Of a stretch of DNA of 64,000 bases, positions 26,531 through 42,743 are shown piece after piece. Where the stretch lies: assembly GCA_027366525.1 (NCBI GenBank), contig DAHXKG010000003.1, positions 164,997-228,996 of the forward strand, in the 5' to 3' direction. The position numbers were made by a program, and so were the translations under genes. The notes beneath the pieces are model-generated. The model did not search any database, had not been told where the DNA came from, and saw nothing but the letters and a program-made list of their open reading frames with translations. This DNA is from a candidate division FCPU426 bacterium. GTDB lineage: Bacteria; Oederibacteriota; Muellerivitia; Muellerivitales; DAHXKG01. Within the stretch, counting starts at the first letter, position 1. Every line of letters begins with the position of its first letter.

Positions 26531-26624
<94 letters not shown>

Positions 26625-26653
26625 TCATGATTCAAGTTGTTTAATAGGATAAT

Positions 26654-26739
26654 TGGCGGAGGGTGCAGGACTCGAACCTGCAAGGGGTTTCCCCCGGTGG
26701 ATTTCAAGTCCACTGCCTTACCAGTTAGACTAACCCTCC
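26654..26739 (-). tRNA. tRNA-Ser (anticodon UGA), CCA encoded
   Basis: The reverse complement has acceptor GGAGGGT/ACCCTCC, anticodon stem GTGGA/TCCAC with loop CTTGAAA (anticodon TGA), long variable arm, GGTTCGAGTCC T-arm and CCA. Confidence 0.9.
26701..26739. repeat. attL-type direct repeat (5-prime half of tRNA-Ser(UGA))
   Basis: atttcaagtccactgccttaccagttagactaaccctcc recurs at 57642-57680 with one mismatch (26735 C vs 57676 T). Confidence 0.85.
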
Positions 26740-26746
26740 ATCTCCC

Positions 26747-27521
26747 TCAAACTCTTACAGCACCATCATTTTTTAAAACCATTCGCTGATTGAACACCAC
26801 TGAAACTTCTGGAGTCCTATAGGTGTCCTTCAACTCTTTAAACCGTCTCACTTTGGCCAACGCGTTCTGGCGGTCTTCCCGATCAATCCGGTCGTACTTC
26901 CAAAAGACCGCATAGGTCTTATGTCCGGAAATCGACATAATTGTCGTATCACTTAAACCGGACTTTCTAAAGTTCGTAATCGCATAGTTCCGTAAATCAT
27001 GGAAATGAAAGTTTGTAATATTAGCACGGACGCACGCTTTTAGAAAAGCCGTTCTTGGGTCTTTTATTCTCCGACCCCTGAAATTGAAAACATAGGGATT
27101 CCCCAAAACTTTGGGTATTCTCCTGAAAAGATTTGCAAAATTCTCATCCAGGGGAATTTCCCGTTCTTCCTGTGTTTTGGTGTCTGTGGATCTCGAGGTA
27201 GGAACGCCTTCCCTTAAATCCACATTCTCCCATTTCAATCCCAGCACCTCACCCCGTCTCATTCCTGTGTCATAAGCCAACTGAACGACTGGCCGGATAT
27301 GGGGAGAGCAATGGTCTAACAATCTTTAGGTATTCCTCAGAAGCCAGAGTTCGATTTCGGGAAGTCTCCCGAAACATTTTTAACCCTTCAACCAGATTCC
27401 GATAAACCTGCCGGTTTAAAACTGCTCTGCGAGCGATCGAGAAAATATCTTTTTTCATCCTTCCGAAAATATCGTGGAAGCCATGGGCATAGGTTGACTC
27501 ATGTTTTCTCCTAACGTTCAC
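26747..27521 (-). pseudogene. tyrosine recombinase/integrase, frameshifted
   Basis: Two overlapping ORFs in different frames (27270-27521 and 26747-27322) together give the catalytic domain: TGMRRGE (R), HDLRN (HxxR), SGH and a C-terminal Tyr region. The frameshift is near 27300. Confidence 0.8.
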
Positions 27522-27799
27522 AGCAAGACGTATTATATCAATTAACCCTCCTAAAGAAAGAGGATTTTTGAAAACATTTAAGAAGACGGAAAATCAAACC
27601 CTCGGATGCACTTTAGGATGGGCTTCAGGTTTTGATTTCCTTTTTCAATAGACCAATCAAATTTTGAAGGAAGGTTTCAGCCAATAACCGGTAATAAGGT
27701 TGCCGCTACTGGTGTCATAATAAAGGACCGTATAAACACGGTTAGCAATCGCCTCGGGGTCATCATCATAAAGATGGTTGTAGGTATGGGATTTGTTTT

Positions 27800-28419
27800 T
27801 ATCCACTAGGTTGAACTGGTAACCAAAGGAAATACGCCATCAATCCTAGAAAGGCCACGGGTGGGAACCTTACCTGTTCCAGAAGCCGCTTTGAGGGAAG
27901 CTGTTCTCAATGCGGTTATTCACAAAGATTATTCGATCTATACCACTATTCAGATCAGTGTTTATGACGACAAGTTGATGATTTGGAATCCGGGCGAACT
28001 GCCCCACCAATGGACACTTGGAAAATTGAAAGGCAAACATGAATCCAGACCTTTCAATCCTGATATTGCTAAACGCTTTTTTTAGGGCAGGTATGATTAA
28101 ATCATGGGGTCGTGGGATTGAACGCATATTTGAAGCTTGCCGGGTAGCTAAATGCCCTAAACCTCAATTTCGCCCGGATCATTCAGGGTTATGGGTAGAA
28201 TTTCAGTTTCCTAAAACGACGGTAGAAACGACAGTAAAAACACATTCATTGATTTTGGAATATTTGGAAAAAAAGCTGAAAGCGACTTTAGCTGAAGTAG
28301 CTTTTGGAATAAATAAATCGCTACGTGCGGTTGAGCGAGCAGCTTCCAGATTGGTTAAAGAAAATAAGCTTCGTTTTATTGGGTCGCGCAAAGGTGGACA
28401 TTGGGAGGTTTTGAAATGA
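27800..28419 (+). pseudogene. C-terminal fragment of a Schlafen/AlbA_2-HATPase_c_4-wHTH protein (COG2865-like), frameshifted
   Basis: LREAVLNAVIHKDYS ... NPDIAKRFF then, in the next frame, RAGMIKSWGRGIERI ... GSRKGGHWEVLK. The frame change sits at a T7 run (28077-28083). The N-terminal AlbA_2 part is absent. Confidence 0.7.
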
Positions 28420-28694: not shown

Positions 28695-28955
28695 CTAGTT
28701 TGAAGTGATGGTCAACATTAGGTTGGCCCGTCTTCTTTGCTCCAACGTCCATTGTTTTTTCGCTGCCCGATTGGCTAAAATTTCTTCCCACCGTCTTTCA
28801 TAAACATCTATCGGGCTCACGTTTTTCAACGACTCGTACGGTATCCTATTGTACTGCTCTACCGTTTCCTTGATAGCTTTTCCAATTCCGCCGGACTCTG
28901 ATACACCAATCAGATTTACTTCTTCTTTGATTCTCCGATTCAGTTTCTCCAGCAT
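28695..28955 (-). pseudogene. transposase C-terminal remnant (rve/integrase-core type)
   Basis: YNRIPYESLKNVSPIDVY resembles the YN..RPH..L...TP tail of IS3/IS481-type DDE transposases. No catalytic core is present. Confidence 0.5.
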
Positions 28956-29051: not shown

Positions 29052-30632
29052 TTATACTCTGGCTGATTTGATTTTATTAAGACGTACCTTATATCCAAGT
29101 CCCTCCAGCCGTTGATGTGCATTTTTAAGACTTACTTTACTGAAGAAAGGGAGGTCAAGCGGGTGATTCGAGTAGCTGATGATTCCGTAGACTACTTCGT
29201 AATCATCTGTTCTAGGCCGGGATCTAGGATCTGCCAGTTTATAAGCCGAAGGTAGTTTGTCGTTTACTTTTACCCTAAACTCCGAGTCTCGTGCAAATAG
29301 TTCCCCGGAAACTATCCCCTGAAAAAAAAGATGACTAAGTGGAGCAGAATTACCATATCGCTTTATGTGTATAAGCTTTTTATCTAAAGTGAGAATATCG
29401 CAAAATTCAATTTGTCCGTGAGTCCCACCATGATAAATTATGTCACGATCCATACAATGAGCCCCGAGTGTGGCCGCCGCAGCTACGTTATAACTCCTTT
29501 CATCCGCTTGTGTACAATTAGGAAGCGTAATACTTGAGGCTACAACCGTCTCATAATCACGTGTAATGTGATTTTTAAACGATTTGTCCACTTGGTACCA
29601 CTTCCCATTGTTAAGAACAAATAATTCTTCAACGTGTTCGATTTCTGCGTACGTGCATTTATAAGCAGACCAATGTTCTGAAACGTTATTATTTGCAAGT
29701 GAAAACATAAAAACGGAGTCTTTCTTTAATGTATCTACGTCCGTCAGTGGAGTTCCCATCTCGTCTAAATAAGAATCCATTCCGATATCGGGGTGGAGAT
29801 CACCTCGTGTCTGACGACAATAACGGAAGCCTTCAAGGTCTTCCCAATTGATAACTTCTGGCACAGACATCCATATTTTTCTCAAATCCCGATTTTGAAT
29901 CTTTTGAATAAGAATTTCATCGAGCTGACTAATGACAGCCGTATTCTTTATTTCCGCAATTTGGTCTATCCAACCAAAATTGATCTTGTAATCTGTACTC
30001 TTGTAACGTTCATAACAATGCCTTAAAAAAGCAACTATATTTGTTATATCAACACGAGCAGAAGTTGTAAGAGCATCCTTTCCTGTAATAGTCTTACCAA
30101 GAATCGAATCATTAGTCTTCGCAGTAACAGAACTAATGAGGTCCTGTTCAATATCAATCCCAAATTCACTTGCAGTGACTTCTCGGCCCATTTGCTCACG
30201 TGTCTGTTTGGGGACAGAACCAAGGGTTGTTTTGTCGATGCTTCGAAGGCTTCCGGCATTTGCAGAGTTTAAAACAACTTTGAGCCCGAATCGTTCTTCG
30301 ATGACATTATCTTTAAGCAAAAACTTTCCGCCCCCAAAGGTAATTGCGAAATACCGCGTCTGATTTTCACAAGTAATAGGAACTAGAAGAGTGCCACGAG
30401 CAATGGATGAAAAAAGAGGAATGTCATTTGGCAAAGCACCACCAAAAAACTTTTGAATCCAATCGGGTTTAAATTGATGCGATTCTGAAAAAATAAAAGT
30501 TCCAACACCATCTATGGTGGCTCGTTTAGCCTCATCTTCTACAATATTTATAAGATCTGTCTGTTCCGACTTAAGCATATAAACCGAAATCTTGTTTGTT
30601 TTGACCAGACTTGTTCTTGGCATAATAGCCAA
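29052..30632 (-). CDS. TIGR04141/DUF6119-like sporadically distributed protein
   Basis: 526 aa. N-terminal ISVYMLK start and a C-terminal IEFCDIL ... LIHIKR nuclease-like motif as remembered for this family. Not verified by search. Confidence 0.5.
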   Translation of the reverse strand: MAIMPRTSLVKTNKISVYMLKSEQTDLINIVEDEAKRATIDGVGTFIFSESHQFKPDWIQKFFGGALPNDIPLFSSIARGTLLVPITCENQTRYFAITFGGGKFLLKDNVIEERFGLKVVLNSANAGSLRSIDKTTLGSVPKQTREQMGREVTASEFGIDIEQDLISSVTAKTNDSILGKTITGKDALTTSARVDITNIVAFLRHCYERYKSTDYKINFGWIDQIAEIKNTAVISQLDEILIQKIQNRDLRKIWMSVPEVINWEDLEGFRYCRQTRGDLHPDIGMDSYLDEMGTPLTDVDTLKKDSVFMFSLANNNVSEHWSAYKCTYAEIEHVEELFVLNNGKWYQVDKSFKNHITRDYETVVASSITLPNCTQADERSYNVAAAATLGAHCMDRDIIYHGGTHGQIEFCDILTLDKKLIHIKRYGNSAPLSHLFFQGIVSGELFARDSEFRVKVNDKLPSAYKLADPRSRPRTDDYEVVYGIISYSNHPLDLPFFSKVSLKNAHQRLEGLGYKVRLNKIKSARV

Positions 30633-30848: not shown

Positions 30849-31373
30849 CTATTTTTTCTTAAAAATTCCACGATTTTTTCCAAAACCCTCAATTGCCTTC
30901 CCAGTGCGGACATGTCTTCTAAAAGAAAGTAAAACTTCCCAAGGCAATTCACTTATGTTTTCCGCAACATCAAAATAGTAAAGTGGTTTCCCTTCTTCCA
31001 GTCTCTCTAAGGTTTTTTTATCCAATTCAACATTATCGGGATTGTCTCCCCACAAATCCTCATAATCACACCAATATATTTTTTCATACCAAACAATAAA
31101 ATGGCTGTAACAACCGGATTCTCTAATAACAGAAGGATATAATGTAATTTTTCCTCTTTTTTTGTAAAAACGCCAAGCGGGACCAACACGGGGATCTAAA
31201 TTAAGTATTACTTCTTCTCCACAACCACTTGGGCAAAGCAAAATAAACAATCGCGGAATTTTTCTTACTACAAGAACTCCATCACCAGGCTTAATCAATA
31301 AAGGTTTTACGTCATCGCGCGATTCAACAACACCTTTAAATTGAATCTCATTCGCCCTTTGGCTTTCCACCAT
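30849..31373 (-). CDS. DUF6527-like putative zinc-binding protein
   Basis: CPSGCGE ... W ... TLYPSV ... GCYSHF.V matches the remembered DUF6527 pattern (CxxxC ... CxxH). Last gene of the Ubl operon, 15 nt after the preceding gene. Confidence 0.5.
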   Translation of the reverse strand: MVESQRANEIQFKGVVESRDDVKPLLIKPGDGVLVVRKIPRLFILLCPSGCGEEVILNLDPRVGPAWRFYKKRGKITLYPSVIRESGCYSHFIVWYEKIYWCDYEDLWGDNPDNVELDKKTLERLEEGKPLYYFDVAENISELPWEVLLSFRRHVRTGKAIEGFGKNRGIFKKK

Positions 31374-31388
31374 TTCCGTGTCCTTAAT

Positions 31389-32852
31389 TCAAAGAGTAGC
31401 AAGATGAATTATTATTTTTTCAGCAAGCAAATAAATAAAAGATTTTCGAAAATCATCTCTATCAGAACTAGCGACAGTTCCAGAAATACTTAATAATCTC
31501 ATCGCTAAAGTAAAACTATACTCTTCTTTTGTAGAAGTTTGTGTGAACGCAATTTCTCTAACCTTCTTTATGCTTTGCCATAGTTTTTCTTCTGTGTCAC
31601 CAAGACCAAGCGTGGTCGGCATTTGAACCATTAAAAATTCCGGAGAATAAATTTTTAAAACAAACTTTTTCCAATCGGTTTTACTTAAGTTTTTACCACC
31701 AGGTAAATTTATTCGTTCAACAGAAATGCTTACTTCTAAAGCCGCACAATCTTCATTAATTGGACCCCAGTCAACCGACGCAAAATCTATAAGTACCGCT
31801 TCTTCGGAACGGACCATTATATTTTTCCCATGTAAATCCCTGTGAATAAGTGTATTTGTATAATTGAAATCTTTGACCTTTATTTGAATTAATGATTTCA
31901 GCTCTTTGGGCGTTATCATCGCCCCCAATTTAATAATTTTTTTAAACCTTTGTAATATTTTTTTTGAGCTAAAATTGCCAGGTTTTCCCTTTGTTTGCGT
32001 AGTCTGTCGTCGCCAACAATTTAAAGTTATATCAAATAAATGATTAATTTCCTTTTTTGCTCTTCCTTTTTGGGCCAAATCTAACAATAAATCAGCATCT
32101 ATATAATCGCCCACAATCAAACCCTTTTCAAAACCCGAAATACATCTTTTTAAGTCAAGATGGGGTCTCAGGTTAAATGGGATAAAATTATTTACATATT
32201 TTTCATAATTCATTATTTCTTTTTTCTGATTTTCAACACTTTCAATTTTTAAAAAAAACGGTAATGGGATTAGTGGTTTTGGGGCCAAGCCAACTATTTG
32301 TCCATTGACCTCAAATATTTTTGCTTCGGTTCTCCCACCAGAAAGGTTGCGAACTGTTATCAAACAAAAATCCGAAAAAGCTCTTTTTAATAAAAGTTTT
32401 TCATTTTTCGTTAACTTAATCTTGGAAGATGAGTCATTTATATTCAATTCGACATGTGGGGAGGACATTGGTTCGTGACGGGCAAATATTTCAGCAATTT
32501 TAGAAGGTTTTTCATCCCACAAGAGCGAAAAGTGTTGATGGTTTATAAGCGATGGAAATTTCTCATCTAAAATATCCCTTGTTAATTGGAAATAGAAGTT
32601 ATTTGGAACGTGAGCAATAACAAATAATCCATAATCTAAAGCTATTGGTGAAAAGTTTTGTATTCCTTCTAAATATTGTTTTGGTTTATTGCCATGATTA
32701 AAAACTATTCCTCTGGCAGATGAAAGAGCATTTTTAATCCCATTCAAATTCACACGCTCAAAATCTAGATTTCTTTCTATAAATGGTTCGAGAGAAATAT
32801 TTACAGCTGGACCTATCCAGAGTATTTTTTTGCGAATAAATCTTTCATTCAT
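31389..32852 (-). CDS. protein-kinase-like/APH-fold protein with an unassigned N-terminal domain
   Basis: LSGGRTEAKIFEV (Gly-loop plus Lys), IHRDLHGKNIMV catalytic loop and LIDFASV (DFG-like). The ATG at 32852 gives an 8-nt overlap with the E1 stop. The track ORF starts at 32897. Confidence 0.6.
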   Translation of the reverse strand: MNERFIRKKILWIGPAVNISLEPFIERNLDFERVNLNGIKNALSSARGIVFNHGNKPKQYLEGIQNFSPIALDYGLFVIAHVPNNFYFQLTRDILDEKFPSLINHQHFSLLWDEKPSKIAEIFARHEPMSSPHVELNINDSSSKIKLTKNEKLLLKRAFSDFCLITVRNLSGGRTEAKIFEVNGQIVGLAPKPLIPLPFFLKIESVENQKKEIMNYEKYVNNFIPFNLRPHLDLKRCISGFEKGLIVGDYIDADLLLDLAQKGRAKKEINHLFDITLNCWRRQTTQTKGKPGNFSSKKILQRFKKIIKLGAMITPKELKSLIQIKVKDFNYTNTLIHRDLHGKNIMVRSEEAVLIDFASVDWGPINEDCAALEVSISVERINLPGGKNLSKTDWKKFVLKIYSPEFLMVQMPTTLGLGDTEEKLWQSIKKVREIAFTQTSTKEEYSFTLAMRLLSISGTVASSDRDDFRKSFIYLLAEKIIIHLATL

Positions 32853-34179
32853 TTTGTCTTGCGGGCAAAGGCCATTCATCGCCCCGACCAAACGCACCCC
32901 TTGGAGAACAAACTATACAAACTGGGTCGATAGGTGCAGAAGCCGGGCGTAGTTTCCCGGTGATTCCATCATAAGTTTGAAACCTAGCCTTGAAAGGTAC
33001 ACCTGTAACGAATCCCAAAAACATTGTTATTGCAAAAGAAACCATTGTTGAATTTAGGGAAATTACACTCGGAGCAGGAATGTTATCTCCAATAAAATAA
33101 GGATCTTTTTGTCGCTGAAAAGAAGTCATTAAATCATACCTGATGGCATCCGGGTCTAATGTTCCTGAACAGGTCAAACAACCTAGGCCCGGTGAAAGCA
33201 TTTGAGTTCGGCCAGTAATATGAGTCACTTGATGGTTTTGTGCTGTTATGCTCACACCAATATCAATACACGGGATAAAATATTGATAACTTAATTGGTT
33301 TAAAATTGCTCTACTTCCATGACTATCGGTACAACAAAAAATAAAATCCACATCCTTTAAAAGCAGTGCAACCTTAGCATCCAAAATACTCCCTTTAACT
33401 TTTTTAATCTCTGCCTCATTATTTACAAATTTAATTAGTCGGTTTGCGATATCCACTTTCGGACGATTTAAATCTTTTTTATTTGCCCCCACTACTCGGT
33501 TTAGGTTCGAAACTTCAATTACATCTGGATCGATTAATAAATAATTTTTTACTCCTAAATAAGCCAATTGCTGTATTACTAATGAACCAGTTCCCCCAAG
33601 TCCAACAATACCTAACTTCAAATCTCTTAAAAAATGTTGCCCCAGGGGTCCAAAGGCACGAATTTGTCTGTCAAATTGTTTTATTTGGCCAAACTTAGTC
33701 TCTTCATTTGAATGGGACCAAATGTTTGGTCCAACCTCCATCACTCGGATTTTTTTAAACGTTCCTAAAAACCGGGCTGTACAACCATTAGGTCCCACAA
33801 CTAAAGCAATATGAGGACCCAAAACATTTCTTTTTTCTAAAAAAACGCATAATGTTTTCTCCCCTTTGTCATCAATAGGTGAAAAACGAGGATTATTTAT
33901 ACTCCCGGGATGAGTGTGGACAAAAACCAAACCTTTATTATTGAGTTTTGCTTTTTTTACTATTGGAGCTAAAAATTCTGGTTTTAATTGACAATCGACG
34001 CCAGTTTTTTTGAGATAAGCTTCATCCGTCGGTAAATGAATATCATTGACTAGAATTCTAAATCCACTTTTTGTTTTAACAGGGGTAGTTACCAAAATTG
34101 CAGCCGATTCAGTTGAATGACTAAGCAATAAAGTTTTTAATCCAGAAAATACTTGTCCCGGAAATATTAAGTCGTTCAT
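32845..34179 (-). CDS. JAB/JAMM peptidase fused to ThiF/E1-like adenylyltransferase
   Basis: JAMM motif HTHPGSINNPRFSPID (HxH...SxxD). E1 Rossmann GIVGLGGTGS, SNLNR, CCTDSHGSR, and CLTC plus CIVC zinc pairs. Confidence 0.85.
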   Translation of the reverse strand: MNDLIFPGQVFSGLKTLLLSHSTESAAILVTTPVKTKSGFRILVNDIHLPTDEAYLKKTGVDCQLKPEFLAPIVKKAKLNNKGLVFVHTHPGSINNPRFSPIDDKGEKTLCVFLEKRNVLGPHIALVVGPNGCTARFLGTFKKIRVMEVGPNIWSHSNEETKFGQIKQFDRQIRAFGPLGQHFLRDLKLGIVGLGGTGSLVIQQLAYLGVKNYLLIDPDVIEVSNLNRVVGANKKDLNRPKVDIANRLIKFVNNEAEIKKVKGSILDAKVALLLKDVDFIFCCTDSHGSRAILNQLSYQYFIPCIDIGVSITAQNHQVTHITGRTQMLSPGLGCLTCSGTLDPDAIRYDLMTSFQRQKDPYFIGDNIPAPSVISLNSTMVSFAITMFLGFVTGVPFKARFQTYDGITGKLRPASAPIDPVCIVCSPRGAFGRGDEWPLPARQNE

Positions 34180-34559
34180 TGGCTGTCTTTAAGTCTTGTT
34201 TGTATAACATGAAAAAAGGTTGAAAGATTATCTTGGCTTGGATTCCATTGACCTAAATGCCATGAAAACCAAAGATGCGGAGGTAAATCTAGAGCTTCTG
34301 GTATCGCTTGGAGCTGGGCATTTTTTGGAATACCTCCATTTTTTAGCCTTAAGGTTGGTTCCGCCCAAAAACAATCTGGTTTTGCATATGGAAATCCTAC
34401 TGGAGCGATAAATTTAATATCGATTTTATCACGGGACCAGCCAGGAGAGAGTTTTACAGAAGGTACTGTAATTAAATAAGCACCACTGGGAAACTTTCTT
34501 TGAAAAACTTCTGGGCATTCGGATTTTAAAATTGCAAACTGCTCTTCAAAAGGTGTCAT
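34176..34559 (-). CDS. prokaryotic E2-like (UBC-fold) protein
   Basis: 127 aa with a single candidate catalytic Cys in GFPYAKPDCFWAEP. 4-nt overlaps with both neighbours. Context lies between the Ubl and E1 genes. Confidence 0.6.
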   Translation of the reverse strand: MTPFEEQFAILKSECPEVFQRKFPSGAYLITVPSVKLSPGWSRDKIDIKFIAPVGFPYAKPDCFWAEPTLRLKNGGIPKNAQLQAIPEALDLPPHLWFSWHLGQWNPSQDNLSTFFHVIQTRLKDSQ

Positions 34560-34852
34560 TTTAAACCAAAAGTTGCCGGTGGAACTGTATAGAAATGACG
34601 AATTCCCTTGTCCTGGTCATTATCATGATCTGCATCACTTCCTGGTTTTAAGTCTACCGTTTGAGTATCTGCTATCTGCTTATCTTCGGAATCTTTATCC
34701 CGATCTTCTAAGAAAAGTTGATACGTATTGTTTGGGCTTGGTAATTTTGATTTTATTTGCGCGCCAGTTAAACTTCGATCTTGGGATTCATATTTTTTCC
34801 CATCAACATAATAAACATATTTTTCTTTTTTCTCGGATGTATCCGCACTCAT
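34556..34852 (-). CDS. multiubiquitin-type beta-grasp (Ubl) protein
   Basis: 98 aa. YVYYVDGKKYESQDRSLTGAQI ... YQLFL resembles the multiubiquitin domain. Ends ...PPATFGLK. First gene of the operon. Confidence 0.55.
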   Translation of the reverse strand: MSADTSEKKEKYVYYVDGKKYESQDRSLTGAQIKSKLPSPNNTYQLFLEDRDKDSEDKQIADTQTVDLKPGSDADHDNDQDKGIRHFYTVPPATFGLK

Positions 34853-34904
34853 TTTTTTCCCCTTTGCTCCAAAAATGTTGAATTTATTTGAAGAATTTTT
34901 TAAC

Positions 34905-34913
34905 AGTATAACA
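34905..34913 (-). promoter_or_regulatory. possible extended -10 promoter element for the Ubl operon
   Basis: Minus strand reads TGTTATACT about 50 nt upstream of the Ubl ATG, with a purine-rich RBS (AAGGGG) before the start. Confidence 0.3.
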
Positions 34914-35168
34914 CAAAAAAGAAGTTTAATTTGATCGCAATTCTCCCTTTGTAAATACTTTCAGGCAAGTTCCCGGCTCTTAAATCAAAATTAAAGCTTC
35001 GCTGCACGACCACCTCTAATCCCCGGCACTGGCCGGAGATTTCGGTTGTGTCCAGAATGTTTCGCGCATTTTATCAGGATAGGCCTGCGTGGGCCGCAAG
35101 TCGTTATCTTAATCCGCATTTTTTAAAAGCCTCAAAATAACCCAAAATTATCTTTGTGTTTTTGAAGA

Positions 35169-38100
35169 TCATTCCTTTTCAAAACCCTGGTCTTTAAACT
35201 TCAAAGTTCTACTGTTTTCTGTAACAATTCGGATTACGTTATCCGGCGTTCCATTTGGGATTTCAGCTTCAATTTCAAGCGTCACCTTCAATTTGGAGCC
35301 CATTAACCCTGCCAAATGGGCAATGACTTCATCTGCCACGCGACTAGCATCCCGTCCCACTCTAGTAGGATCAAGTTTGACTGTTCCATGAAAACGCTTA
35401 GGAGATGCTAATACATTGGTTCTTGATTTTCCTTCTGGTTTTTCTGACGAATCCGTAGTTAAAGATGGAGAGGCTGTGGAAGATCCTGCTTGAGAAGCCA
35501 CAGCCTGTCTTGTCGCAAGTTGTTGGTTGGCGACTTCTGATTTCACCAGAAGCCCTGTATTATCTTCTGGTATTCCAATTCGCTCCCCACACCGCAATCC
35601 CTTGAATTGTCCGGTAGCCTCGTCTTTGCTTTCGGCATAGGCAAAAGATTCCTGTGCCCAAGTCAAAAGGGTCAACCCACTTGTGATGGCTTCCCGTAAA
35701 ACCGCGTTGTTGGTCAAGCGGGGGAGGTAAAGATATCGAGCAAAATCTTCTATAAGTTGTCGAATAGACACGGAATCACCGCGCCAAAGAGGAACATTAT
35801 CCAAATCTAATCGAAGTCTGGTACCAGCTAAGGCCGTCACCAACAGTTCTTCGTTCTTTAACTTCTTACTAGCCCTAGCCGCTAAAGGATCAGTGCCTGT
35901 CAGACGGATAGCGTTCCATGTGATGGGTTTTTCTGCGTCTATCTGAACCGGCACCAAGAGCCATTGGTAGGCTTCCGGCAAACGGCTCTTGACCACACTA
36001 TCAGTTGAATTTCTTTGATTCTCTGCCTGTTTAACTTGATGCGGGTCGAGATTCAAAGCCTCGCTGTCATCAAGTATGGATTCCCATGCCAAATAACGAC
36101 TGATAGCTTCTACCAAATCCTGCAAACGGGCTTGATCTACCGCTAAAAAAACCAATGTATTACGGAACAAACGGGGGGTGTTACCCCGATTTTCCAAGAT
36201 AGCTTTAGCTTGAGCTTCGGCTTTATTATTTGGGTCTTTGCTATAGGGGTAATCAGAACCCAACACCACCAGCCGTGCATCCATGTCGTCGGGGACATCT
36301 TGGCCGGATTGGGGAGCGGAATGAACTCTTGGAAAATCACCTTTAGTCTTGAGATCAGTTTGTAAACGTTTTTCCAATTCATGTGCCAAGGCATCTAGGT
36401 CACGCCTTTTCTGTTCAGCTCGGTCTTCTGCGATTTTGGTGACGGTAGGTTGGGTGGAATACCAGTAACGAGTTCCATCCTGATAAAGATAAGTTGCGGC
36501 GGAAGATAAACGCCTCAAAGCATCCCCAAACACAGCAGGAGTTTCTCCAGGCATGACACAACCTAATTTAACCTGACGGTCTTCCAAACCCCGGTTGGCC
36601 GCTGCGGCAGTCGGGGCAGAACCTAAATAAATAGTCCTCGCGACCCTGCGGCAAGCAGCGTATTTTCCCAGGTTTGGCACTTCGCCATCAATACGGCGTG
36701 GGAGAGCATCTGGCCCATCCACATCTTTATCCAAGACCGGAACCCAGTTATCGGAAAGATACCGTGTCAACTCGAACTGAACTTGGGGGTCATCAATGGG
36801 GATATTCGAGGGAAGAATCAAAGGGTTTTTGTCGTTGTTCTTCCAAAGGCTGTGGATGACGGCGGCCATCAGGCGCAAAACACCGCGAGTCCTTTGGAAC
36901 TTCACCAAAGTGGACCAGTCGATATAAAGTCGATCAAACACCTCTGGATGAATTGGATAAGCTGCCCTCAAGCGTTTTTCGTAATCGGCGTTTCTACATT
37001 CAAGCGGAAATTCTTGGTGTTGGGTTCGATAAAAATCATAAAAACCCTGGGCAACAGTGTCTCTGGCTATAAATTGATTTTTATCGAGGATCGGTTCAAA
37101 CAAGCGGCGGCGAACAATCTCAAACCCTTCCTCAGCTCCAGCAGGCCGCCACGATGCCTCCACCCGGCCCACAGCATTCCGCAACCGGGCCAAAGCCACC
37201 CGGCCTCGTTCACCACCGACTTCCACGTCATCGGCCACCGCATGGGGTGAACCGGTTGTATCCGAGGCAGGTAAGCTGATAACTAGAAGGCATTGTTTGG
37301 CCAATTTAGCCGATTCCGTAAGAGTCTGGGCAAAGGTGAAATGGGTCTCAAAACTTCCTCCCGGAAGATCCGCTTGATCGTGAAGCTGCCTGGCATAGGC
37401 TACCCATTCGTCTACGAGAATAAGACAAGGGCCATATTCATTGAATAATTCACGCAATGCGTCACCAGGACTCGTAGCCTTTTCATCATCCGCTTGGATA
37501 CGAGCAAAAGCTTTCTTGCCCCCTAGTTGCCAAGCTAGTTCGCCCCAAAGGGTTCGTACTACGGTGCCATCTGATTTAACAGAAGGGTTTCCAGGTGAAA
37601 TTCGATTTCCCACCAAAACTACTCGTTTAGCGCTAACAGGTTTATCGGCACCCGCTTGTTTCAATATTTCATCCATGCCGGGAAGTTCCGTGGGTTTGAT
37701 CCCGGAAAAAAGATGATAGAGGGCCAGCATCGAATGGGTTTTGCCGCCGCCGAAGTTCGTTTGAAGTTGAATGACTGGATCTCCACCTTTTCCCGTCAGG
37801 CGTTGAAGAGCTCCTCTCAAAAGATGTTTGAGACTCTCGGTCAGGTAAGTCCGTCGGTAAAACTCAATGGGGTTTTTATATTCCTCGCTACCTTCCCCTA
37901 AGTGAACCTGCCAGAGATCAGCAGCAAACTCGGCCTGCTGGTAATGACCATTAGCCACATCCTTGTGAGGGGTCACCACCTCGCGCCAAGGAGGAAGTTG
38001 GTGGGTGGCTGTACTTTCTATGACCGTTCCAACCGTTTTTCGTTTCTCCTGACGGACTTGCTCATCAAAACGAACCCGGAGAAGCTCCATTTTCATCTTT

Positions 38101-38498
38101 TCAATATCTTCTACTTGAGGAGCAGAAACTGCGGCCAATAAGCGTCCCACGGAATCAAACACCCGATAAGCCTCATCCGTGGAAAAGGGTTGTTGATGAG
38201 CCCAGTTATTCTGGTGGTCTATTAGCTCACTGACTAAAGACCTCTCAGCCCTTCCCAAGGTTTTTGCAAAAACTTCGGTCCATTGATTCCACATCACAAC
38301 TAGAAGGTTAGTGACATCCCAATTGGGCTTATTCTCTGTGCCAAACAGGTTGGTTTGAGTAGAACCAACCGATTTCTTGGCGATCTCAAACCATTGTTGG
38401 GCGTGCTGGGTACGCATCTCCCGTTCGACAAACGGTTGAAGACCTTCGCGGAGAAGTTCCAATGCTTTACCGACTCGTTCGTGGTTTGTTGATGCCAT
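35169..38498 (-). CDS. Swt1-like HEPN + DUF499 P-loop ATPase (anti-phage associated)
   Basis: 1109 aa. N-terminal HEPN-like helix pair ending NNWAHQQPFS, Walker A FGGGKTHS and Walker B LILVDEW. Sits 3 nt after the DUF1156 gene. Confidence 0.85.
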   Translation of the reverse strand: MASTNHERVGKALELLREGLQPFVEREMRTQHAQQWFEIAKKSVGSTQTNLFGTENKPNWDVTNLLVVMWNQWTEVFAKTLGRAERSLVSELIDHQNNWAHQQPFSTDEAYRVFDSVGRLLAAVSAPQVEDIEKMKMELLRVRFDEQVRQEKRKTVGTVIESTATHQLPPWREVVTPHKDVANGHYQQAEFAADLWQVHLGEGSEEYKNPIEFYRRTYLTESLKHLLRGALQRLTGKGGDPVIQLQTNFGGGKTHSMLALYHLFSGIKPTELPGMDEILKQAGADKPVSAKRVVLVGNRISPGNPSVKSDGTVVRTLWGELAWQLGGKKAFARIQADDEKATSPGDALRELFNEYGPCLILVDEWVAYARQLHDQADLPGGSFETHFTFAQTLTESAKLAKQCLLVISLPASDTTGSPHAVADDVEVGGERGRVALARLRNAVGRVEASWRPAGAEEGFEIVRRRLFEPILDKNQFIARDTVAQGFYDFYRTQHQEFPLECRNADYEKRLRAAYPIHPEVFDRLYIDWSTLVKFQRTRGVLRLMAAVIHSLWKNNDKNPLILPSNIPIDDPQVQFELTRYLSDNWVPVLDKDVDGPDALPRRIDGEVPNLGKYAACRRVARTIYLGSAPTAAAANRGLEDRQVKLGCVMPGETPAVFGDALRRLSSAATYLYQDGTRYWYSTQPTVTKIAEDRAEQKRRDLDALAHELEKRLQTDLKTKGDFPRVHSAPQSGQDVPDDMDARLVVLGSDYPYSKDPNNKAEAQAKAILENRGNTPRLFRNTLVFLAVDQARLQDLVEAISRYLAWESILDDSEALNLDPHQVKQAENQRNSTDSVVKSRLPEAYQWLLVPVQIDAEKPITWNAIRLTGTDPLAARASKKLKNEELLVTALAGTRLRLDLDNVPLWRGDSVSIRQLIEDFARYLYLPRLTNNAVLREAITSGLTLLTWAQESFAYAESKDEATGQFKGLRCGERIGIPEDNTGLLVKSEVANQQLATRQAVASQAGSSTASPSLTTDSSEKPEGKSRTNVLASPKRFHGTVKLDPTRVGRDASRVADEVIAHLAGLMGSKLKVTLEIEAEIPNGTPDNVIRIVTENSRTLKFKDQGFEKE

Positions 38499-38501
38499 TG
38501 T

Positions 38502-41396
38502 TTAGGATTCCTTACTTTCAAATAGACCGGTTTGTTCATGTGGCACTTTACCGACTTCACGGGCCAAACGGGTAATTTCTGGCCAGCTTTGGACCAAAGC
38601 ATTATAGCTTAAAGCTTCTTGAGATCGTTTCTTGCGCTCACAGATGGAGTAAAGTCTATAAGCCAATTCACGAGCTGTTTCGGCTTTACTCCCGAGTTTG
38701 CTAACCAGCACTGCCGCCGCCGATTCCCCTTTTGCCAAAACACGTACCAAGTGATGCACTGTTTCCCATGCCGTCAAACGGTCATCCTTAGCGAGATCCC
38801 AGTTATCCGACAGTTCTTCAGGCTTTAGCAAACGCACCTTCCCACGTTTGGATTCCAGGATTCCGGTCTCTTCTAAGCCATGAACACTTGTGTTTTTGGC
38901 TTTGCTAAGAGTTTCCGCTACCCCATATTCTCCGGCAGCAAAACCTTGTTGTTCAAACCAAGCCAAAGCCCAACGGCTATAGGCATCAAAATCGCCTCCC
39001 TGTTCGGCCAACGTCTCATCCATCACTTGGTTAATCAAAGCCAAGGCTTCTCGAACGGGTACCGCTTTACCTTCCGTATCAATCACTTTTGAAAAACGTG
39101 TAAATATCGCCATTCCAGGGCCTATGGAAGCCTGAGCCAAATCCACTGGAGCAATATTGCTCTGTTGTAGTTTTTGAAGGGCTGACGGCAATTCGGACTT
39201 CAATTCTGCCAAAAAATCACGACGTGTTACGGTAGGTGCATCATGATTATTTTTTCTGCAGACCAAAACAACACTCGTTGCTAAAGCCGCAATATTCTTT
39301 TTTAGATTTCCAGTATATTCAGTTTTTATAGGCCATGTTCCGCTAACAGAAAATCCAGCTGAAATTACCGCATCAAGAAAAGTCTCCCAACCAGTGCTTG
39401 CAGTCCCACCTTCACTTTTATTTTCGGATTGTTTAAAAGCATAGTAAATGGTTACAGGAAATAATAAATGACTCCTTTCCGAAAGACACCGCATTGCATT
39501 CGTCATCCCATTTAAGAAAAATTTTTCAGCCGCATCTTTATTACCATGTCTATATGGTGTCGCAACTAATTCTTCAGCCTTCGGAACAGCAAGAGTTCCA
39601 AAAAGTTCAGGGAAAATGTTTTTCAAAGATCTACGCAACCAAACATAAAAAAAGTCCGAAAGATCTGCATAGCCAATATTGTCATAGTACGGGGGATCAG
39701 TAGATATCAGTTTATTTAAGCTGATTGTCTGTGTTGCTGCGTCAATTTGGTTTGCAAAACTTTTGGGTTTAGCTGGAGCCGTTAAAATTTGTTTGGCAGC
39801 TTGGTCAATGCCTGCTAAATAATTTCCAGAAGATTCGCTAAAAGGATTTGCTTCTGCAAAATCCCAAACCATCGGGAGGGCTTGCCGACCAAAAGTGCTT
39901 GTAATAGTATCTCGACCACCGTGCCAAGAACATATGGAAGACCAGTAATTAGCCCCTTTATCAATTGCAAAACTCAAATAAACTCCTACCGCATCCGCAT
40001 AAGCCGTTGCACCAAGACCACCGTCGGCCAGTGGTTTGGAATCATCGGGCATGCCTGCAGAAATAGCGTCTTTCTTAACTTCTTCACGGGCTTCTTGGAT
40101 TAAATCAGAAAAAGTCGTTAAGGCCACAAGTTGGCGAGAAGTAAATATTTCATGCCAGAATTTAATTCCATAACCACGACCACTCACTAGATTTGGTGTA
40201 TTCTGATTCATTTCTTCTTCTGGTTTCCATTTCGGTTTAGCTTGCCATACTATTGTTTCGTGTCTGGAAGTTGGGCAAAGATATATTCTCCCATTTTTTC
40301 CCTCTGCAACTATTGCCATGAGTTTGGAGCCAATTCGACCTTTCTTCCCTTCTTCTTTTATATAAGAACTTTCTATAGGAACTCCTGACATTAAGCATTT
40401 GAAGTTAGCACCCTGGGCAAGTTTTGTACCGTTTCGGATTTCAGCAATATTTTTAGGTTTACCAACCTTCACATTGAAGTGATACACGCCGTTTTGAATT
40501 GCCGGTTCCACATAGGCTTCCTTGCCAGGTTTGGTCGAGAGCATAAAGGTTGAAGCGAGTGGTACTTCCACTTTTGCAAAAGCAGGATTGGGGCTTTTCA
40601 CTGTACGGGCCCAAAGCCAAGCAATGACCGTTAGCTTTTGACCTAAATAGGGTTTGAGATCAGGCCGTTCTTTCACCATTTCTTTTGTGATTTCAATCTT
40701 TGGATAGAGATATCCAATTTTCTTTTCCGCCTCATCTCGCATCCATTGACCGTAATAACGAACATCTTCAGCTAACCCTTGAGTTCCTTTCCATGAGCGT
40801 TCAATTAAATCTTTACCCTTATTAGCCTCGAAGTTAACAGGTGACTTGTCGGCAAACTTGGGTGGTATTTCAATCATGGCCTTGTTAATTAAAACAGCTA
40901 CGGGGTTCAAGTCACTGGCATAAGATTCCAAACCCAATCGTTGAGCCTCTAAGGGTAACGCCCCACCCCCAGCAAAGGGATCATGGAAAGCTGGAAGCTT
41001 GTCTCTGTTGAATAACTCTTTTGCTTGCGGATGGTCTGCGTTGTCCGCACAAGTACGCCGCCAGCTATTCCAAATTTCAGTCCTGGCCCTATTTAGAACT
41101 TCTTCGTTGGTTGTGTTTTCCCATTGCACGAGTTCTTCGATGATCTTGAAAAGTCTCTTCCGTTCTTTTTCTTGCGCTTTTTCAGTTGGAAAAAGGTCAG
41201 GCCACTCCGAAGGATCATCTACCATCTGAGCAAAAATAACCGCCCGTGCCGCCGCCAAAGGCCGTCTCGCCCACCACAAATGAAGCGTGCTCGGATGGCC
41301 ATGCCGAATGGATTTTTCTCTTGCGGAAGCCTTATTGATAGTTTCCAAGGGAAGCGCCACTTCAATAAGTTTTTTTCTATTTTTACTTGGATTCAT
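38502..41396 (-). CDS. DUF1156 domain DNA methyltransferase (N6-adenine/N4-cytosine type)
   Basis: N-terminal IEVALPLETIN...REKSIRHGHPSTLHLWWARRP (DUF1156), motif I DPFAGGGA and motif IV TDPPYYDNIGYADLSDFFYVWLR. Confidence 0.9.
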   Translation of the reverse strand: MNPSKNRKKLIEVALPLETINKASAREKSIRHGHPSTLHLWWARRPLAAARAVIFAQMVDDPSEWPDLFPTEKAQEKERKRLFKIIEELVQWENTTNEEVLNRARTEIWNSWRRTCADNADHPQAKELFNRDKLPAFHDPFAGGGALPLEAQRLGLESYASDLNPVAVLINKAMIEIPPKFADKSPVNFEANKGKDLIERSWKGTQGLAEDVRYYGQWMRDEAEKKIGYLYPKIEITKEMVKERPDLKPYLGQKLTVIAWLWARTVKSPNPAFAKVEVPLASTFMLSTKPGKEAYVEPAIQNGVYHFNVKVGKPKNIAEIRNGTKLAQGANFKCLMSGVPIESSYIKEEGKKGRIGSKLMAIVAEGKNGRIYLCPTSRHETIVWQAKPKWKPEEEMNQNTPNLVSGRGYGIKFWHEIFTSRQLVALTTFSDLIQEAREEVKKDAISAGMPDDSKPLADGGLGATAYADAVGVYLSFAIDKGANYWSSICSWHGGRDTITSTFGRQALPMVWDFAEANPFSESSGNYLAGIDQAAKQILTAPAKPKSFANQIDAATQTISLNKLISTDPPYYDNIGYADLSDFFYVWLRRSLKNIFPELFGTLAVPKAEELVATPYRHGNKDAAEKFFLNGMTNAMRCLSERSHLLFPVTIYYAFKQSENKSEGGTASTGWETFLDAVISAGFSVSGTWPIKTEYTGNLKKNIAALATSVVLVCRKNNHDAPTVTRRDFLAELKSELPSALQKLQQSNIAPVDLAQASIGPGMAIFTRFSKVIDTEGKAVPVREALALINQVMDETLAEQGGDFDAYSRWALAWFEQQGFAAGEYGVAETLSKAKNTSVHGLEETGILESKRGKVRLLKPEELSDNWDLAKDDRLTAWETVHHLVRVLAKGESAAAVLVSKLGSKAETARELAYRLYSICERKKRSQEALSYNALVQSWPEITRLAREVGKVPHEQTGLFESKES

Positions 41397-42486: not shown

Positions 42487-42536
42487 TAATGACCTTTCTA
42501 TAATCAGTTTTTTTGCTTAAATAGGATTCTCGCCTA

Positions 42537-42743
42537 TTACTTGAGCACCTTCCAATACCCGCCCTTGTCCGGTCCGACACGACGTAAAAAATATTTTTTT
42601 CTCAGCTTAGCGATGTTTTGCTCCACCTTTCGATGTGAAATACCCACTTGCTCCGCGACCTCTCTTGCGGGAGCATCTGGTTTTTGCTGAAGGTATGCCA
42701 TAATCCGTTCTTGGTTTTTCGTTAATCGATCTCCGACCTTTTT
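42537..42743 (-). other. winged-helix (wHTH) coding segment lying in frame immediately after the TAG stop of the upstream gene
   Basis: Own codon-by-codon translation after TAG(42744-42746): KKVGDRLTKNQERIMAYLQQKPDAPAREVAEQVGISHRKVEQNIAKLRKKYFLRRVGPDKGGYWKVLK then a stop. It parallels the C-terminus of the fragment copy at 28260-28419. Confidence 0.7.

Follow-up and report, generated by a model that had tools for sequence, protein, structure and literature searches.

Bub, a bacterial ubiquitination-like pathway, was earlier named 6E.1/DUF6527. Its Type I form has been characterised biochemically, through crystal structures (PDB 9ea4, 9eae) and conjugation assays performed both in vitro and in cells (Ye et al., bioRxiv 10.1101/2024.11.21.623953). 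By the published definition, the ubiquitin-like protein (Ubl) of a Type I system is always fused to the E2, and these fused-AB Type I operons, together with Type II, account for most of the described Bub operons; a kinase is absent from the published descriptions. Phage protection has so far been shown for no Bub operon, even among the characterised ones (Chambers et al. 2026).

The locus discussed here consists of five co-directional minus-strand open reading frames within positions 30849–34913 of the window, that is, of the whole 64,000-nt stretch of DNA that was analysed. With a probability of roughly 0.8, we read it as a Type I-like Bub (6E.1/DUF6527) protein-conjugation operon, from a sub-clade with one additional conserved gene. 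The assignment follows from the Pfam matches of the four core proteins and from the PDB, where the best E1 match and the only E2 matches are BubCD and BubB, respectively. The Ubl, the E2, the JAB–E1 fusion and BubE together make up a Type I-like Bub core, and the published catalytic residues are all kept: Asp62, Ser99 and His101 in the E2, Tyr361 in the E1, and Ser81 and His91 in BubE. The genes run in the order bubA–bubB–bubCD–kinase–bubE, with overlaps of 4, 4 and 8 nt at the first three junctions and a 15-nt gap at the last. In its reading frames, overlaps and gap this layout reproduces that of an earlier, sequence-only reading of the same DNA, whose five fold assignments were borne out by Pfam profile search and PDB alignments. 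That reading also held that such a system had no experimental description, which is incorrect for the fused JAB–E1/multiubiquitin/DUF6527 core (Ye et al., bioRxiv 10.1101/2024.11.21.623953) and appears to hold for the kinase gene; we found no paper describing the kinase in Bub operons. The locus thus departs from the published Type I description in its separate Ubl and E2 genes and in its fifth gene, the kinase.

The Ubl gene, bubA (34556–34852, minus strand), encodes a 98-aa protein with a single β-grasp domain, which matches Multi_ubiq in Pfam (2.9e-8) and, weakly, the Bub multi-ubiquitin proteins 9cd2 and 9d59 in the PDB. The N-terminus of the protein is rich in Lys; the protein also contains an acidic insert, and its C-terminus reads YTVPPATFG96, followed by a two-residue LK tail. 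Gly96 is invariant (41/41 relatives), and in 67 related loci the Ubl ends in VPPAxFG plus 0–7 tail residues, with some relatives stopping exactly at the Gly. Unlike published Type I Bub, in which Ubl and E2 are fused, the two are encoded here by split genes, as they are in 67/67 related metagenome loci; we found no mention of such a split in the Bub papers.

The E2-like, UBC-fold protein is accordingly the product of a separate gene, bubB (34176–34559, minus strand; 127 aa). It matches Prok-E2_E in Pfam (7.5e-9), and its sole PDB matches are to Citrobacter BubB (9eae_C and 9eav_D, E=0.03). In the alignment to the latter, D62 falls on D299 and S99-x-H101 on S333-x-H335, and each of these residues is found in 72/72 relatives. 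Since they are both invariant and so aligned, the predicted active site is Asp62/Ser99/His101, and the chemistry expected of it is an oxyester on the Ser. The sequence-only reading had instead nominated the Cys of AKPDCFW as catalytic. This residue, Cys63 (PDCFW), adjoins the active-site Asp62 and is kept in 68/72 relatives (94%), which lends something to a canonical Cys-thioester cascade, with Cys63 as the E2 acceptor and an E1 nucleophile in CCTDSHG or CLTC. We consider such a cascade improbable, however, as the position is taken by Ser or Thr in 4/72 relatives and by Met in Citrobacter BubB, while the structural equivalent of the E2 catalytic Cys is, in the Bub paper (Ye et al.), an invariant Ser – here S99.

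The next gene, bubCD (32845–34179, minus strand; 444 aa), comprises an N-terminal JAB/JAMM metallopeptidase domain (33685–34179; residues about 1–165) and a C-terminal E1 adenylation domain (32845–33684; residues about 166–444). Its best PDB match is Citrobacter BubCD (9ea4, E=5.4e-32), aligned over both domains (residues 17–389), with MoeB at 2.8e-18; in Pfam it matches ThiF (1.2e-37). On its own, the JAB domain scores 0.003 against Prok-JAB, under the family cut-off, and it is the alignment to the Citrobacter BubCD structure, together with the invariant JAMM residues (Glu24, His88, His90, Ser100 and Asp103, in 74–75 of 75 relatives), that confirms its identity – and, with it, the proposed JAB–E1 fusion with an intact JAMM motif.

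The E1 domain contains a GLGGTGS nucleotide loop, Arg228, Asp285, Tyr361 in the crossover loop and the CxxC pairs C334/C337 and C421/C424; Y361, R228, D285, C334 and C337 are present in 75/75 relatives, and C421 and C424 in 73–74 of 75. E1 enzymes of the MoeB/ThiF type have a structural Zn site made of two CxxC pairs, and the CLTC and CIVC motifs, noted in the earlier reading and lying ~85 residues apart, fit a site of this kind, which again speaks against a thioester cascade. The equivalent of the published nucleophile is Tyr361: in the alignment to Citrobacter BubCD, R228 falls on R227 and Y361 on the catalytic Y370, mutation of which abolishes conjugation (Ye et al., bioRxiv 10.1101/2024.11.21.623953). 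In favour of the cascade, the invariant C334 and C337 are positioned at the start of the crossover region, and, given this placement and the 94% conservation of Cys63 in the E2, thiols may contribute to Bub chemistry. The MoeB-like CxxC pairs, along with matches of 1e-22 to the ThiF/MoeB models of NCBIfam (far under the curated cut-offs), might also suggest a sulfur-carrier or cofactor/peptide-biosynthesis system of the ThiF/MoeB type rather than protein conjugation. To this we give hardly any credence: the cluster encodes an E2 as well as two peptidases, JAB and the deconjugating BubE, rhodanese, ThiG/H and MoaE partners are absent, the nearest structural relative is BubCD, and the surroundings are a defence island.

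The last gene of the operon, bubE (30849–31373, minus strand; 174 aa), had been taken for an extra, DUF6527-like gene; it is a core component that defines Bub, the Ser–His protease BubE, and matches DUF6527 in Pfam at 1.8e-16 (PF20137, which the precomputed Pfam annotation calls BubE). The protein, which is extended at its C-terminus, is predicted to act as a peptidase through a Ser81–His91 dyad and to hold a metal site at Cys47/Cys51/Cys88. Its Ser(+7)Cys(+3)His spacing matches S92/C99/H102 of the Citrobacter protein, C47, C51, S81, C88 and H91 are each found in 60/60 relatives, and three of the four published Bub zinc cysteines are kept.

By homology to the Citrobacter system, the JAB domain of BubCD would trim the Leu97–Lys98 tail of the Ubl and so expose Gly96, which the E1 domain would adenylate, the Ubl then forming an oxyester on the crossover-loop Tyr361. 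From there, the Ubl would pass to Ser99 of the E2, with His101 and Asp62 assisting, and on to lysines of target proteins; BubE, through Ser81/His91, would take it off these targets and thereby restrain the pathway.

The fifth gene (31389–32852, minus strand) encodes a two-domain kinase-fold protein of 487 aa from its ATG; the mechanical list of open reading frames gives a 502-aa GTG form, and the database protein P0001 and all homologues favour the 487-aa form. The first 8 nt of the gene overlap the end of bubCD, and the kinase, with its receiver/flavodoxin-like N-terminal domain, would be translationally coupled to bubCD. The protein matches TCAD9 (4.5e-11) and APH (5.9e-6) in Pfam, and its AF2 model (pLDDT 92, pTM 0.88) has APH(3')-Ia, amicoumacin kinase, MTR kinase and choline kinase as top Foldseek matches, with a probability of 1.0. 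Residues ~150–487 are APH/choline-kinase-like, with a Gly loop (G172-G173), Lys202, Glu212, His337-x-Asp339...Asn344 and Asp356; the HRDLHGKN and IDFA motifs picked out earlier are thus real by both the structure model and Foldseek. K202, E212, H337, D339, N344 and D356 are invariant (33/33 and 53/53 relatives). Residues ~1–125 form a flavodoxin/receiver-like α/β domain without the phospho-acceptor Asp (model pLDDT 88; CheY/flavodoxin matches weak). Given the AF2 pLDDT, the Foldseek matches and the invariant catalytic residues, the kinase is probably active.

All 12 independent, non-duplicate loci found via kinase homologues, sampled down to 25% identity, are Bub operons, 10 with five genes and 2 clipped at contig ends; among the metagenome loci of the BubCD clade, the kinase is present in 67 of the 70 evaluable. 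Because the gene set recurs in this way, whether loci are found through the kinase or through BubCD, the five-gene arrangement is far beyond chance, and gene-neighbourhood analysis confirmed the predicted co-occurrence of the two genes once regarded as extra with E1/E2 across genomes. The kinase is a conserved fifth component of these operons. Clustered at 50% identity, its family (E<=1e-30) comprises 554 clusters, and it occurs also in cultured rhizobia, on plasmids; the sampled Bub operons with a family member span Alpha- and Betaproteobacteria, Planctomycetota and a Terriglobales MAG. An unrelated passenger, such as an aminoglycoside- or antibiotic-resistance-type phosphotransferase inserted in a Bub operon, might be suspected from the RefSeq label of the homologues ('phosphotransferase') and from the antibiotic kinases among the best fold matches. 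It is nevertheless very unlikely, as the gene is embedded in the operon with a stop/start overlap, all sampled family members lie in Bub operons, across the groups just named, the kinase recurs in nearly the whole clade, its N-terminal domain is family-specific and missing from APH enzymes, and it is retained where gene order is altered (L010, L062 and L096).

A possible, if rather doubtful, alternative makes the kinase the effector: a small-molecule, nucleic-acid or cell-envelope-precursor kinase, switched by Ubl conjugation and controlled by the Bub core, in analogy to the Cap2 priming of CD-NTase in Type II CBASS. Such a role would suit its invariant catalytic residues and its nearest structures, which are only small-molecule kinases (APH(3'), amicoumacin, MTR, choline and homoserine kinase), and published Bub operons contain no obvious effector. 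However, the kinase is absent from three or four clade members (L099, L107, L113, L121), which shows that the core does not need it in order to be maintained; most described Bub operons are kinase-free in publications, no substrate candidate or transporter gene lies nearby, and there is no sign of the kinase as a conjugation target. We tentatively take the kinase to be an integral subunit of the Bub pathway, with a role in regulation or specificity, although its closest structural relatives by Foldseek make a protein substrate somewhat awkward. No conserved Ser, Thr or Tyr in the Ubl separates kinase-plus from kinase-less operons.

The intergenic region 5' of bubA (34853–35168, minus strand; 316 nt), presumed to hold the promoter and read directly, contains an extended -10-like TGtTATACT at 34913–34905, a weak candidate picked out by eye; a consensus scan of the region found no two-hexamer promoter. 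No regulator gene adjoins bubA here; among about 51 related loci, 13 have a BrxR/CapW-like regulator immediately upstream. As the sequence-only reading had observed, the operon is more AT-rich than its Hma neighbours (GC 0.345–0.359 vs 0.465–0.508). These neighbours are HmaA/B/C, with hmaC upstream of bubA; ~4 kb downstream there are two tRNA-Ser genes together with a fragment of an integrase, in agreement with the defence-island context proposed earlier, and no att repeat marking the island borders was found. Elsewhere, related Bub loci have R-M, toxin-antitoxin and CBASS genes as neighbours. The core pathway is already known; new here are the conserved kinase-fold gene and the split of Ubl and E2. 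Judged by its genomic context, the operon is most likely a stress or anti-phage module.

In the five-gene operon, the four core genes belong to a system that is already known, and what sets the operon apart is its fifth gene, for a kinase-fold protein, together with the separation of the genes for the ubiquitin-like protein (Ubl) and the E2. The sequence-only reading had described five minus-strand genes with overlaps of 4, 4 and 8 nt and a single 15-nt gap, a layout borne out by the ORF list: Ubl (bubA, 34556–34852, 98 aa), E2 (bubB, 34176–34559, 127 aa), a JAB–E1 fusion (bubCD, 32845–34179, 444 aa), the kinase-fold gene (31389–32897) and a DUF6527 gene (bubE, 30849–31373, 174 aa), all on the minus strand. 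The ORF list gives the kinase 502 aa from a GTG start; from the ATG at 32852 it has 487 aa, and this shorter form is the one under which the protein is entered in the database (P0001) and the one that its homologues match over the full length. The operon is also AT-richer than the neighbouring Hma block, as that reading had noticed, with a GC content of 0.345–0.359 against 0.465–0.508 in the upstream block.

The Ubl, E2, E1 and JAB folds proposed from the sequence are supported by Pfam – which returned Multi_ubiq for the Ubl (2.9e-8), Prok-E2_E for the E2, ThiF for the E1 and DUF6527 for BubE (1.8e-16) – and by matches to experimental structures. Searched against the PDB, the JAB–E1 protein finds Citrobacter BubCD (9ea4) as its best match, over residues 17–389 and thus both domains (E = 5.4e-32), with MoeB far weaker (2.8e-18); the E2 matches Citrobacter BubB only, and the weak matches of the Ubl include Bub multi-ubiquitin proteins. 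As in Type I Bub systems, a single ORF, here of 444 aa, joins an N-terminal JAB/JAMM peptidase to an E1 adenylation domain of the homodimeric type. Since the Pfam families and the matches to BubCD and BubB fit the published description, the four core genes are a known and experimentally described system. These 6E/DUF6527 operons of Iyer, Burroughs and Aravind were renamed Bub (bacterial ubiquitination-like) in two preprints from the Corbett laboratory, which characterised them biochemically, so that the initial statement that the fused JAB–E1/multiubiquitin type lacked an experimental description is outdated.

Gene families and gene order are common to the window and to the Type I Bub operon of Citrobacter sp. 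RHBSTW-00271 (PDB 9ea4, 9eae and 9eav), and the surroundings are similar too, with defence islands and CapW/BrxR-type regulators, although protein identity is low (about 30% in the E1 alignment). The neighbourhood was first described computationally by Iyer, Burroughs and Aravind (2006) as class 6e (polyUbl / inactive E2 / JAB–E1 / metal-binding 'Y'); in the part of that paper available to us, some members have a solo Ubl and an unfused E2, protein Y – now BubE – carries a Cys/His-rich metal-binding signature, the E2 is taken as inactive and a kinase is not among the conserved genes.

Other ubiquitin-like systems fit less well. The Bil (bacterial ISG15-like) Type I and II operons likewise contain Ubl, E2, E1 and JAB genes and act against phage through Ubl conjugation, but, going by summaries of Chambers et al. 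(2024) and Hor et al. (2024), their JAB and E1 are separate, their E1 has an IAD–AAD–CYS architecture with a catalytic Cys, their E2 also uses a Cys, and neither DUF6527 nor a kinase belongs to them. The JAB–E1 fusion, the single adenylation domain and an E2 that aligns with the Ser-type BubB exclude a Bil system for the window. Type II CBASS and 6A–MBL systems (Cap2–Cap3) are excluded as well, as the operon has no E2–E1 fusion and encodes neither a CD-NTase nor an MBL partner; PADLOC gave no match for the Ubl and E2 and only a weak CBASS-type E1–E2 match for the E1, and this match, like that of NCBIfam cap2_3, is confined to the adenylation core (1e-12 to 1e-5).

A fusion of Ubl to E2, as a BubAB pre-protein, has been stated for all Type I Bub operons (Ye et al., bioRxiv 10.1101/2024.11.21.623953). 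Citrobacter indeed makes one BubAB pre-protein, with three β-grasp domains in its Ubl, whereas in the window each of the two proteins has its own ORF, the two ORFs overlapping by 4 nt and being translationally coupled, and the Ubl has a single β-grasp domain. The two proteins are equally unfused at every one of the 67 related metagenome loci that allowed an assessment, and on rhizobial plasmids according to their RefSeq annotation; the split thus corrects the published generalisation of a constant BubAB fusion in Type I Bub. Throughout the clade, the Ubl is a single β-grasp domain with a median length of 87 aa, and its C-terminus is made up of a VPPAxFG motif that hardly varies and a tail of 0–7 variable residues: LK in the window, and nothing at all in some relatives, which end exactly at the Gly. 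This residue, G96 in the window, is invariant in 41/41 relatives. The JAB domain is thus kept even where few or no tail residues need removal, and its retention beside an unfused Ubl with such a short tail suggests that it presumably trims that tail instead of separating a fusion.

Individual relatives vary the Ubl further. At L001, the locus of the closest relative (kinase 49% identical), the Ubl carries a His/Glu/Lys-rich insertion of about 25 residues (HHPEHKKHDEHEHH...), in the same loop that holds an acidic DADHDNDQDK insert in the window Ubl, and bubCD is broken by an apparent frameshift into ORFs of 285 and 138 aa (L001, 5673–7008 and 4928–5296). The Ubl of L107, another related locus, has a long, coiled-coil-like N-terminal extension.

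According to the published mechanism, the JAB domain cuts BubAB behind a conserved Gly, the Ubl is adenylated by the E1 and taken over by Tyr370 of its crossover loop as nucleophile, the E2 uses Ser333 with assistance from His335 and Asp299, and BubE, a Ser92–His102 protease with a Cys4 zinc site, takes the conjugates off (Ye et al., bioRxiv 10.1101/2024.11.21.623953). ATP-dependent Ubl conjugation via oxyester intermediates has been demonstrated in the Citrobacter and E. coli ZDHYS365 systems only. We mapped the window residues onto Citrobacter through alignments of E1 and E2 and, for BubE, through residue spacing, and then counted their conservation among relatives. The two systems share the Asp, Ser and His of the E2, the crossover Tyr and adenylation Arg of the E1, the JAMM site and the Ser–His dyad of BubE. 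Asp62, Ser99 and His101 of the E2 (Citrobacter D299, S333 and H335) are each present in 72/72 relatives, as are Tyr361 (Y370), Arg228 (R227) and Asp285 of the E1 in 75/75; Glu24, His88, His90, Ser100 and Asp103 of the JAB domain (Citrobacter E28, H91, H93 and D104) are found in 74–75 of 75. In BubE, Ser81 and His91 (S92 and H102), Cys88 (C99) and the pair Cys47 and Cys51, which correspond to two of Citrobacter C57, C59 and C61, are conserved in 60/60.

The sequence-only reading had proposed a cysteine for catalysis. Its candidate catalytic Cys of the E2 (Cys63, in PDCFW) is Cys in 68 of 72 relatives, Ser or Thr in the other 4 and Met in Citrobacter, and is therefore no obligatory nucleophile. 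The CLTC and CIVC motifs that it listed for the E1 form two CxxC pairs, C334/C337 and C421/C424, both invariant and arranged like the structural zinc site in MoeB/ThiF-type E1s. For Type I Bub, the crossover loop of the E1 is described as free of Cys. The first pair lies about 24 residues before Tyr361, where the crossover-loop region begins, and together with the second it looks like a putative Zn site; both are missing from Citrobacter BubCD in the alignment. Thus, set against the Bub preprints and the residue mapping, several mechanistic ideas of that reading, from the Cys chemistry to the absence of prior work, were wrong.

A difference in cysteines extends to BubE, which has four in Citrobacter and three conserved ones in the window clade: C47, C51 and C88 are the only invariant cysteines among the relatives, nothing corresponds to Citrobacter C59, and position 102 is occupied by Cys in 31 of 60 relatives and by Phe in 21. 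The observation comes from BubE residues 47–102 and from loci L058–L137 of the related operons; the metal site may be completed by His91, which is also the proposed catalytic base, or by some other residue.

By residue-level homology to Citrobacter, a pathway can be proposed in which JAB trimming would expose Gly96 of the Ubl, and the E1 would adenylate it; the Ubl would then pass as an oxyester to Tyr361 of the E1, from there, again as an oxyester, to Ser99 of the E2, and finally, as an isopeptide, to a target lysine. BubE would reverse the modification.

The kinase gene, placed between bubCD and bubE, departs from the published Type I Bub architecture, and its distribution was followed from two directions. 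A search with the kinase in an index of 5.8 billion proteins gave 42 homologues; the eight looked up, together with four loci in GTDB genomes (the yield of a search with narrow peptide patterns from a five-sequence kinase alignment), make 12 independent, non-duplicate loci. All 12 hold a Bub operon, at kinase identities down to 25%, and the full set of Ubl, E2, JAB–E1, kinase and BubE is present at ten of them, the remaining two (L008 and L009) being those that end at contig ends. Starting from BubCD, a metagenome scan returned at least 542 relatives, and among the best 80 loci, 70 of which were evaluable, the kinase follows directly behind bubCD in 67. Three or four loci of the clade lack it (L107, L113, L121 and probably L099). 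Rearrangement did not remove it: it is retained in a Novosphingobium MAG with the order A–B–CD–E–kinase (L010, 4208–8497), at a locus where it stands behind bubE on the opposite strand (L096, 2071–4134) and at one where bubE lies upstream on the opposite strand (L062, 4313–4831).

These counts – 12/12 loci from the side of the kinase and 67/70 from that of BubCD – confirm the co-occurrence of the kinase and DUF6527 genes with E1 and E2, which had been proposed as a check on the operon, and make the kinase a conserved, family-specific fifth component; its conservation across a large Bub sub-clade rules out that it is a passenger. The family is large: when 1.84 billion cluster representatives (50% identity) were searched with a profile, 554 clusters matched at E ≤ 1e-30, and nearly all the clusters among the matches listed are full-length, at about 470–550 aa. 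In cultured hosts, the operon occurs on plasmids of Mesorhizobium, Rhizobium and Bradyrhizobium, where RefSeq names its products multiubiquitin, E2-UBC, ThiF, phosphotransferase and DUF6527; examples are the operons of Mesorhizobium sp. 131-2-5 (NZ_AP023251.1) and Bradyrhizobium guangxiense p53363 (NZ_CP022220.1). Scanning IMG/VR with BubCD found no Bub operon and only distant ThiF-domain matches – short adenylation-core segments of up to ~50% identity, none of them full-length – and the system is therefore not detectably phage-borne in that collection.

As to what kind of kinase this is, Pfam matched it to APH and TCAD9, the latter with 43.0 bits against a cut-off of 40 and over only 48 residues (profile positions 294–341 of 429). 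A PDB sequence search returned nothing useful (E about 0.8), and the branch was found only by structure prediction and Foldseek: the AlphaFold2 model (pLDDT 92, pTM 0.88) matches, with probability 1.0, APH(3')-Ia, amicoumacin kinase (AmiN), 5-methylthioribose kinase, choline kinase and homoserine kinase. As modelled, the protein is thus a bilobal, APH/ChoK-like kinase, and within the protein-kinase-like superfamily it falls into the branch of small-molecule kinases. Its Gly-rich loop and Lys202, Glu212, His337, Asp339, Asn344 and Asp356 are invariant in a 33-sequence alignment, the six residues also in 53/53 further relatives, and judging from this conservation the enzyme is apparently active. 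Taken with its distribution, there is good support for a large Bub sub-clade that combines unfused Ubl and E2 with an integral, apparently active APH-like kinase. That the catalytic residues are invariant speaks against a role as a non-catalytic adaptor.

Two known groups of kinases had to be considered as its identity. With the APH/choline-kinase-like branch and TCAD9, it shares the fold, the Lys, the Glu, the HxDxxxxN motif and the DFG-like Asp; TCAD9 kinases, however, are partnered by vWA, MoxR and VMAP, whereas the window kinase has an Ubl-conjugation operon as its partner and an extra N-terminal domain. Rare active APH-like kinases have been described as effectors of vWA–MoxR ternary systems, as the origin of TCAD9, and Ubl operons are not mentioned there (Kaur et al. 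2020). As the profile match spans just those 48 residues, and genes for vWA, MoxR and VMAP are absent from all sampled kinase neighbourhoods, a TCAD9 ternary-system kinase is excluded. The second group is CapK, a GHKL-fold HTH–STAS kinase that regulates transcription; many Bub operons have its gene upstream of them, together with that of its STAS–wHTH substrate CapS (PMC13373217). CapK is thus genetically tied to Bub operons, as is the window kinase, but it stands upstream with a STAS substrate, while the window kinase lies inside the operon, has a protein-kinase-like fold and has no STAS gene as partner; the differences in fold and gene position reject this identity.

The N-terminal domain of the kinase (residues 1–125), modelled alone, forms five β–α units (pLDDT 88). 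Pfam found no match in it, and a fold search gave only weak ones (E ≥ 3e-3) to CheY-type receivers, flavodoxins and PpnN/SLOG-like domains. We do not call it a receiver, given the weak and generic nature of these matches and the lack, as read from the alignment, of the acidic pocket and phospho-acceptor Asp of canonical receivers; it is described here as a flavodoxin/receiver-like domain that may have a ligand.

The genomic surroundings agree in part with what had been proposed from the sequence. A defence-island context stands, as a complete Hma system lies upstream of the operon (35169–47545, minus strand), with HmaA at 43988–47545, HmaB at 38502–41396 and HmaC at 35169–38498 (each minus). 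HmaC begins with a Swt1-like HEPN domain (HEPN_Swt1, residues 11–125), which the PADLOC HmaC profile, matching from residue 168, leaves uncovered, and two minus-strand genes are inserted between hmaA and hmaB: a Schlafen/AlbA_2 plus HATPase_c_4 gene (42744–43991) and an unannotated 234-aa ORF (41782–42486). On the other side, 216 nt downstream of bubE, lies a gene for a 526-aa DUF6119/TIGR04141 'sporadically distributed protein' (29052–30632, minus; E about 1e-137), probably an independent island gene because it is not kept beside Bub operons at other loci.

Beyond it, the stretch 26533–28419 holds tandem tRNA-Ser(GCT) and tRNA-Ser(TGA) genes first, a 191-aa phage-integrase-family ORF (26747–27322) and two overlapping ORFs (27861–28085 and 28039–28419) that look like a frameshifted AlbA_2/HATPase_c_4 gene; these are apparently what is left of an integrative element. 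That the island is tRNA-linked, as the sequence-only reading had it, is only loosely supported, since the integrase fragment is found 5' of the tRNA-Ser genes and a search for att-type direct repeats delimiting the island found nothing convincing. An 86-aa ORF (28695–28955, minus; …YNRIPYESLKNVSPIDVY…), which by the look of its sequence resembles the C-terminus of an integrase or DDE transposase, may be a further mobile-element remnant between tRNA and defence genes.

Around the window operon itself, a scan for consensus promoters and terminators found nothing above shuffled expectation, and no CapW, CapH/CapP or CapK/CapS regulator adjoins it. Among about 51 related loci with sufficient upstream sequence, 13 have a BrxR/CapW-like WYL regulator directly upstream of the Ubl gene (L079, L098, L101, L106, L108, L114, L116, L118, L120, L122, L124, L131 and L132; a segment of L005, 3918–4808, is listed with this observation), HTH+Peptidase_M78 (CapH/CapP-like) genes lie near a few other kinase-type Bub operons, and the operons of other relatives adjoin R-M, RES–Xre and CBASS genes. 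By association only, these neighbours point to a stress or immune role. Phage protection by Bub operons is not demonstrated (Chambers et al. 2026, PMC13373217); their pathways conjugate the Ubl by an unusual oxyester chemistry, and a target, a trigger and a phage-defence phenotype are not reported (PMC13373217). The word 'kinase' does not occur in the two Bub preprints, and we found no description of a kinase inside Bub/6E operons in the literature, an earlier listing, for example in Table S1 of Ye et al., being possible.

What the kinase does can be read in two main ways. Its fold neighbours favour an effector or small-molecule kinase under the control of conjugation. We favour instead a regulatory or specificity subunit that would phosphorylate a pathway component or target, for three reasons: the tight translational coupling of the kinase to bubCD, its exclusive co-occurrence with Bub operons, and the fact that the nucleophiles of the pathway are hydroxyls, which a kinase could block. 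In the Ubl, the conservation of Ser, Thr and Tyr did not differ between kinase-plus and kinase-less operons (four loci of the latter kind). In its most far-reaching form, the proposal is that a large, previously unnoticed Bub sub-clade recruited a dedicated, active kinase as a fifth subunit that phosphorylates the Ubl, Tyr361/Ser99, BubE or a target and thereby switches conjugation, with the N-terminal domain possibly sensing a ligand or partner; it is a tentative one, to which we would give roughly three chances in ten.

In eukaryotes, PINK1 and phospho-ubiquitin signalling provide a case of a kinase functionally coupled to ubiquitin-type conjugation, though the parallel is one of analogy only, PINK1 having no homology to the window kinase beyond the superfamily fold. 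If the proposal is true, bacteria would have in this operon their own form of ubiquitin signalling regulated by phosphorylation. The kinase would also be, to our knowledge, the first known protein-kinase-like enzyme hard-wired to a prokaryotic ubiquitin-like cascade. With hundreds of 50%-identity clusters, plasmids of cultured rhizobia included, the kinase sub-clade offers a new experimental handle, and the substrate of the kinase may show what the Bub pathway senses or modifies.
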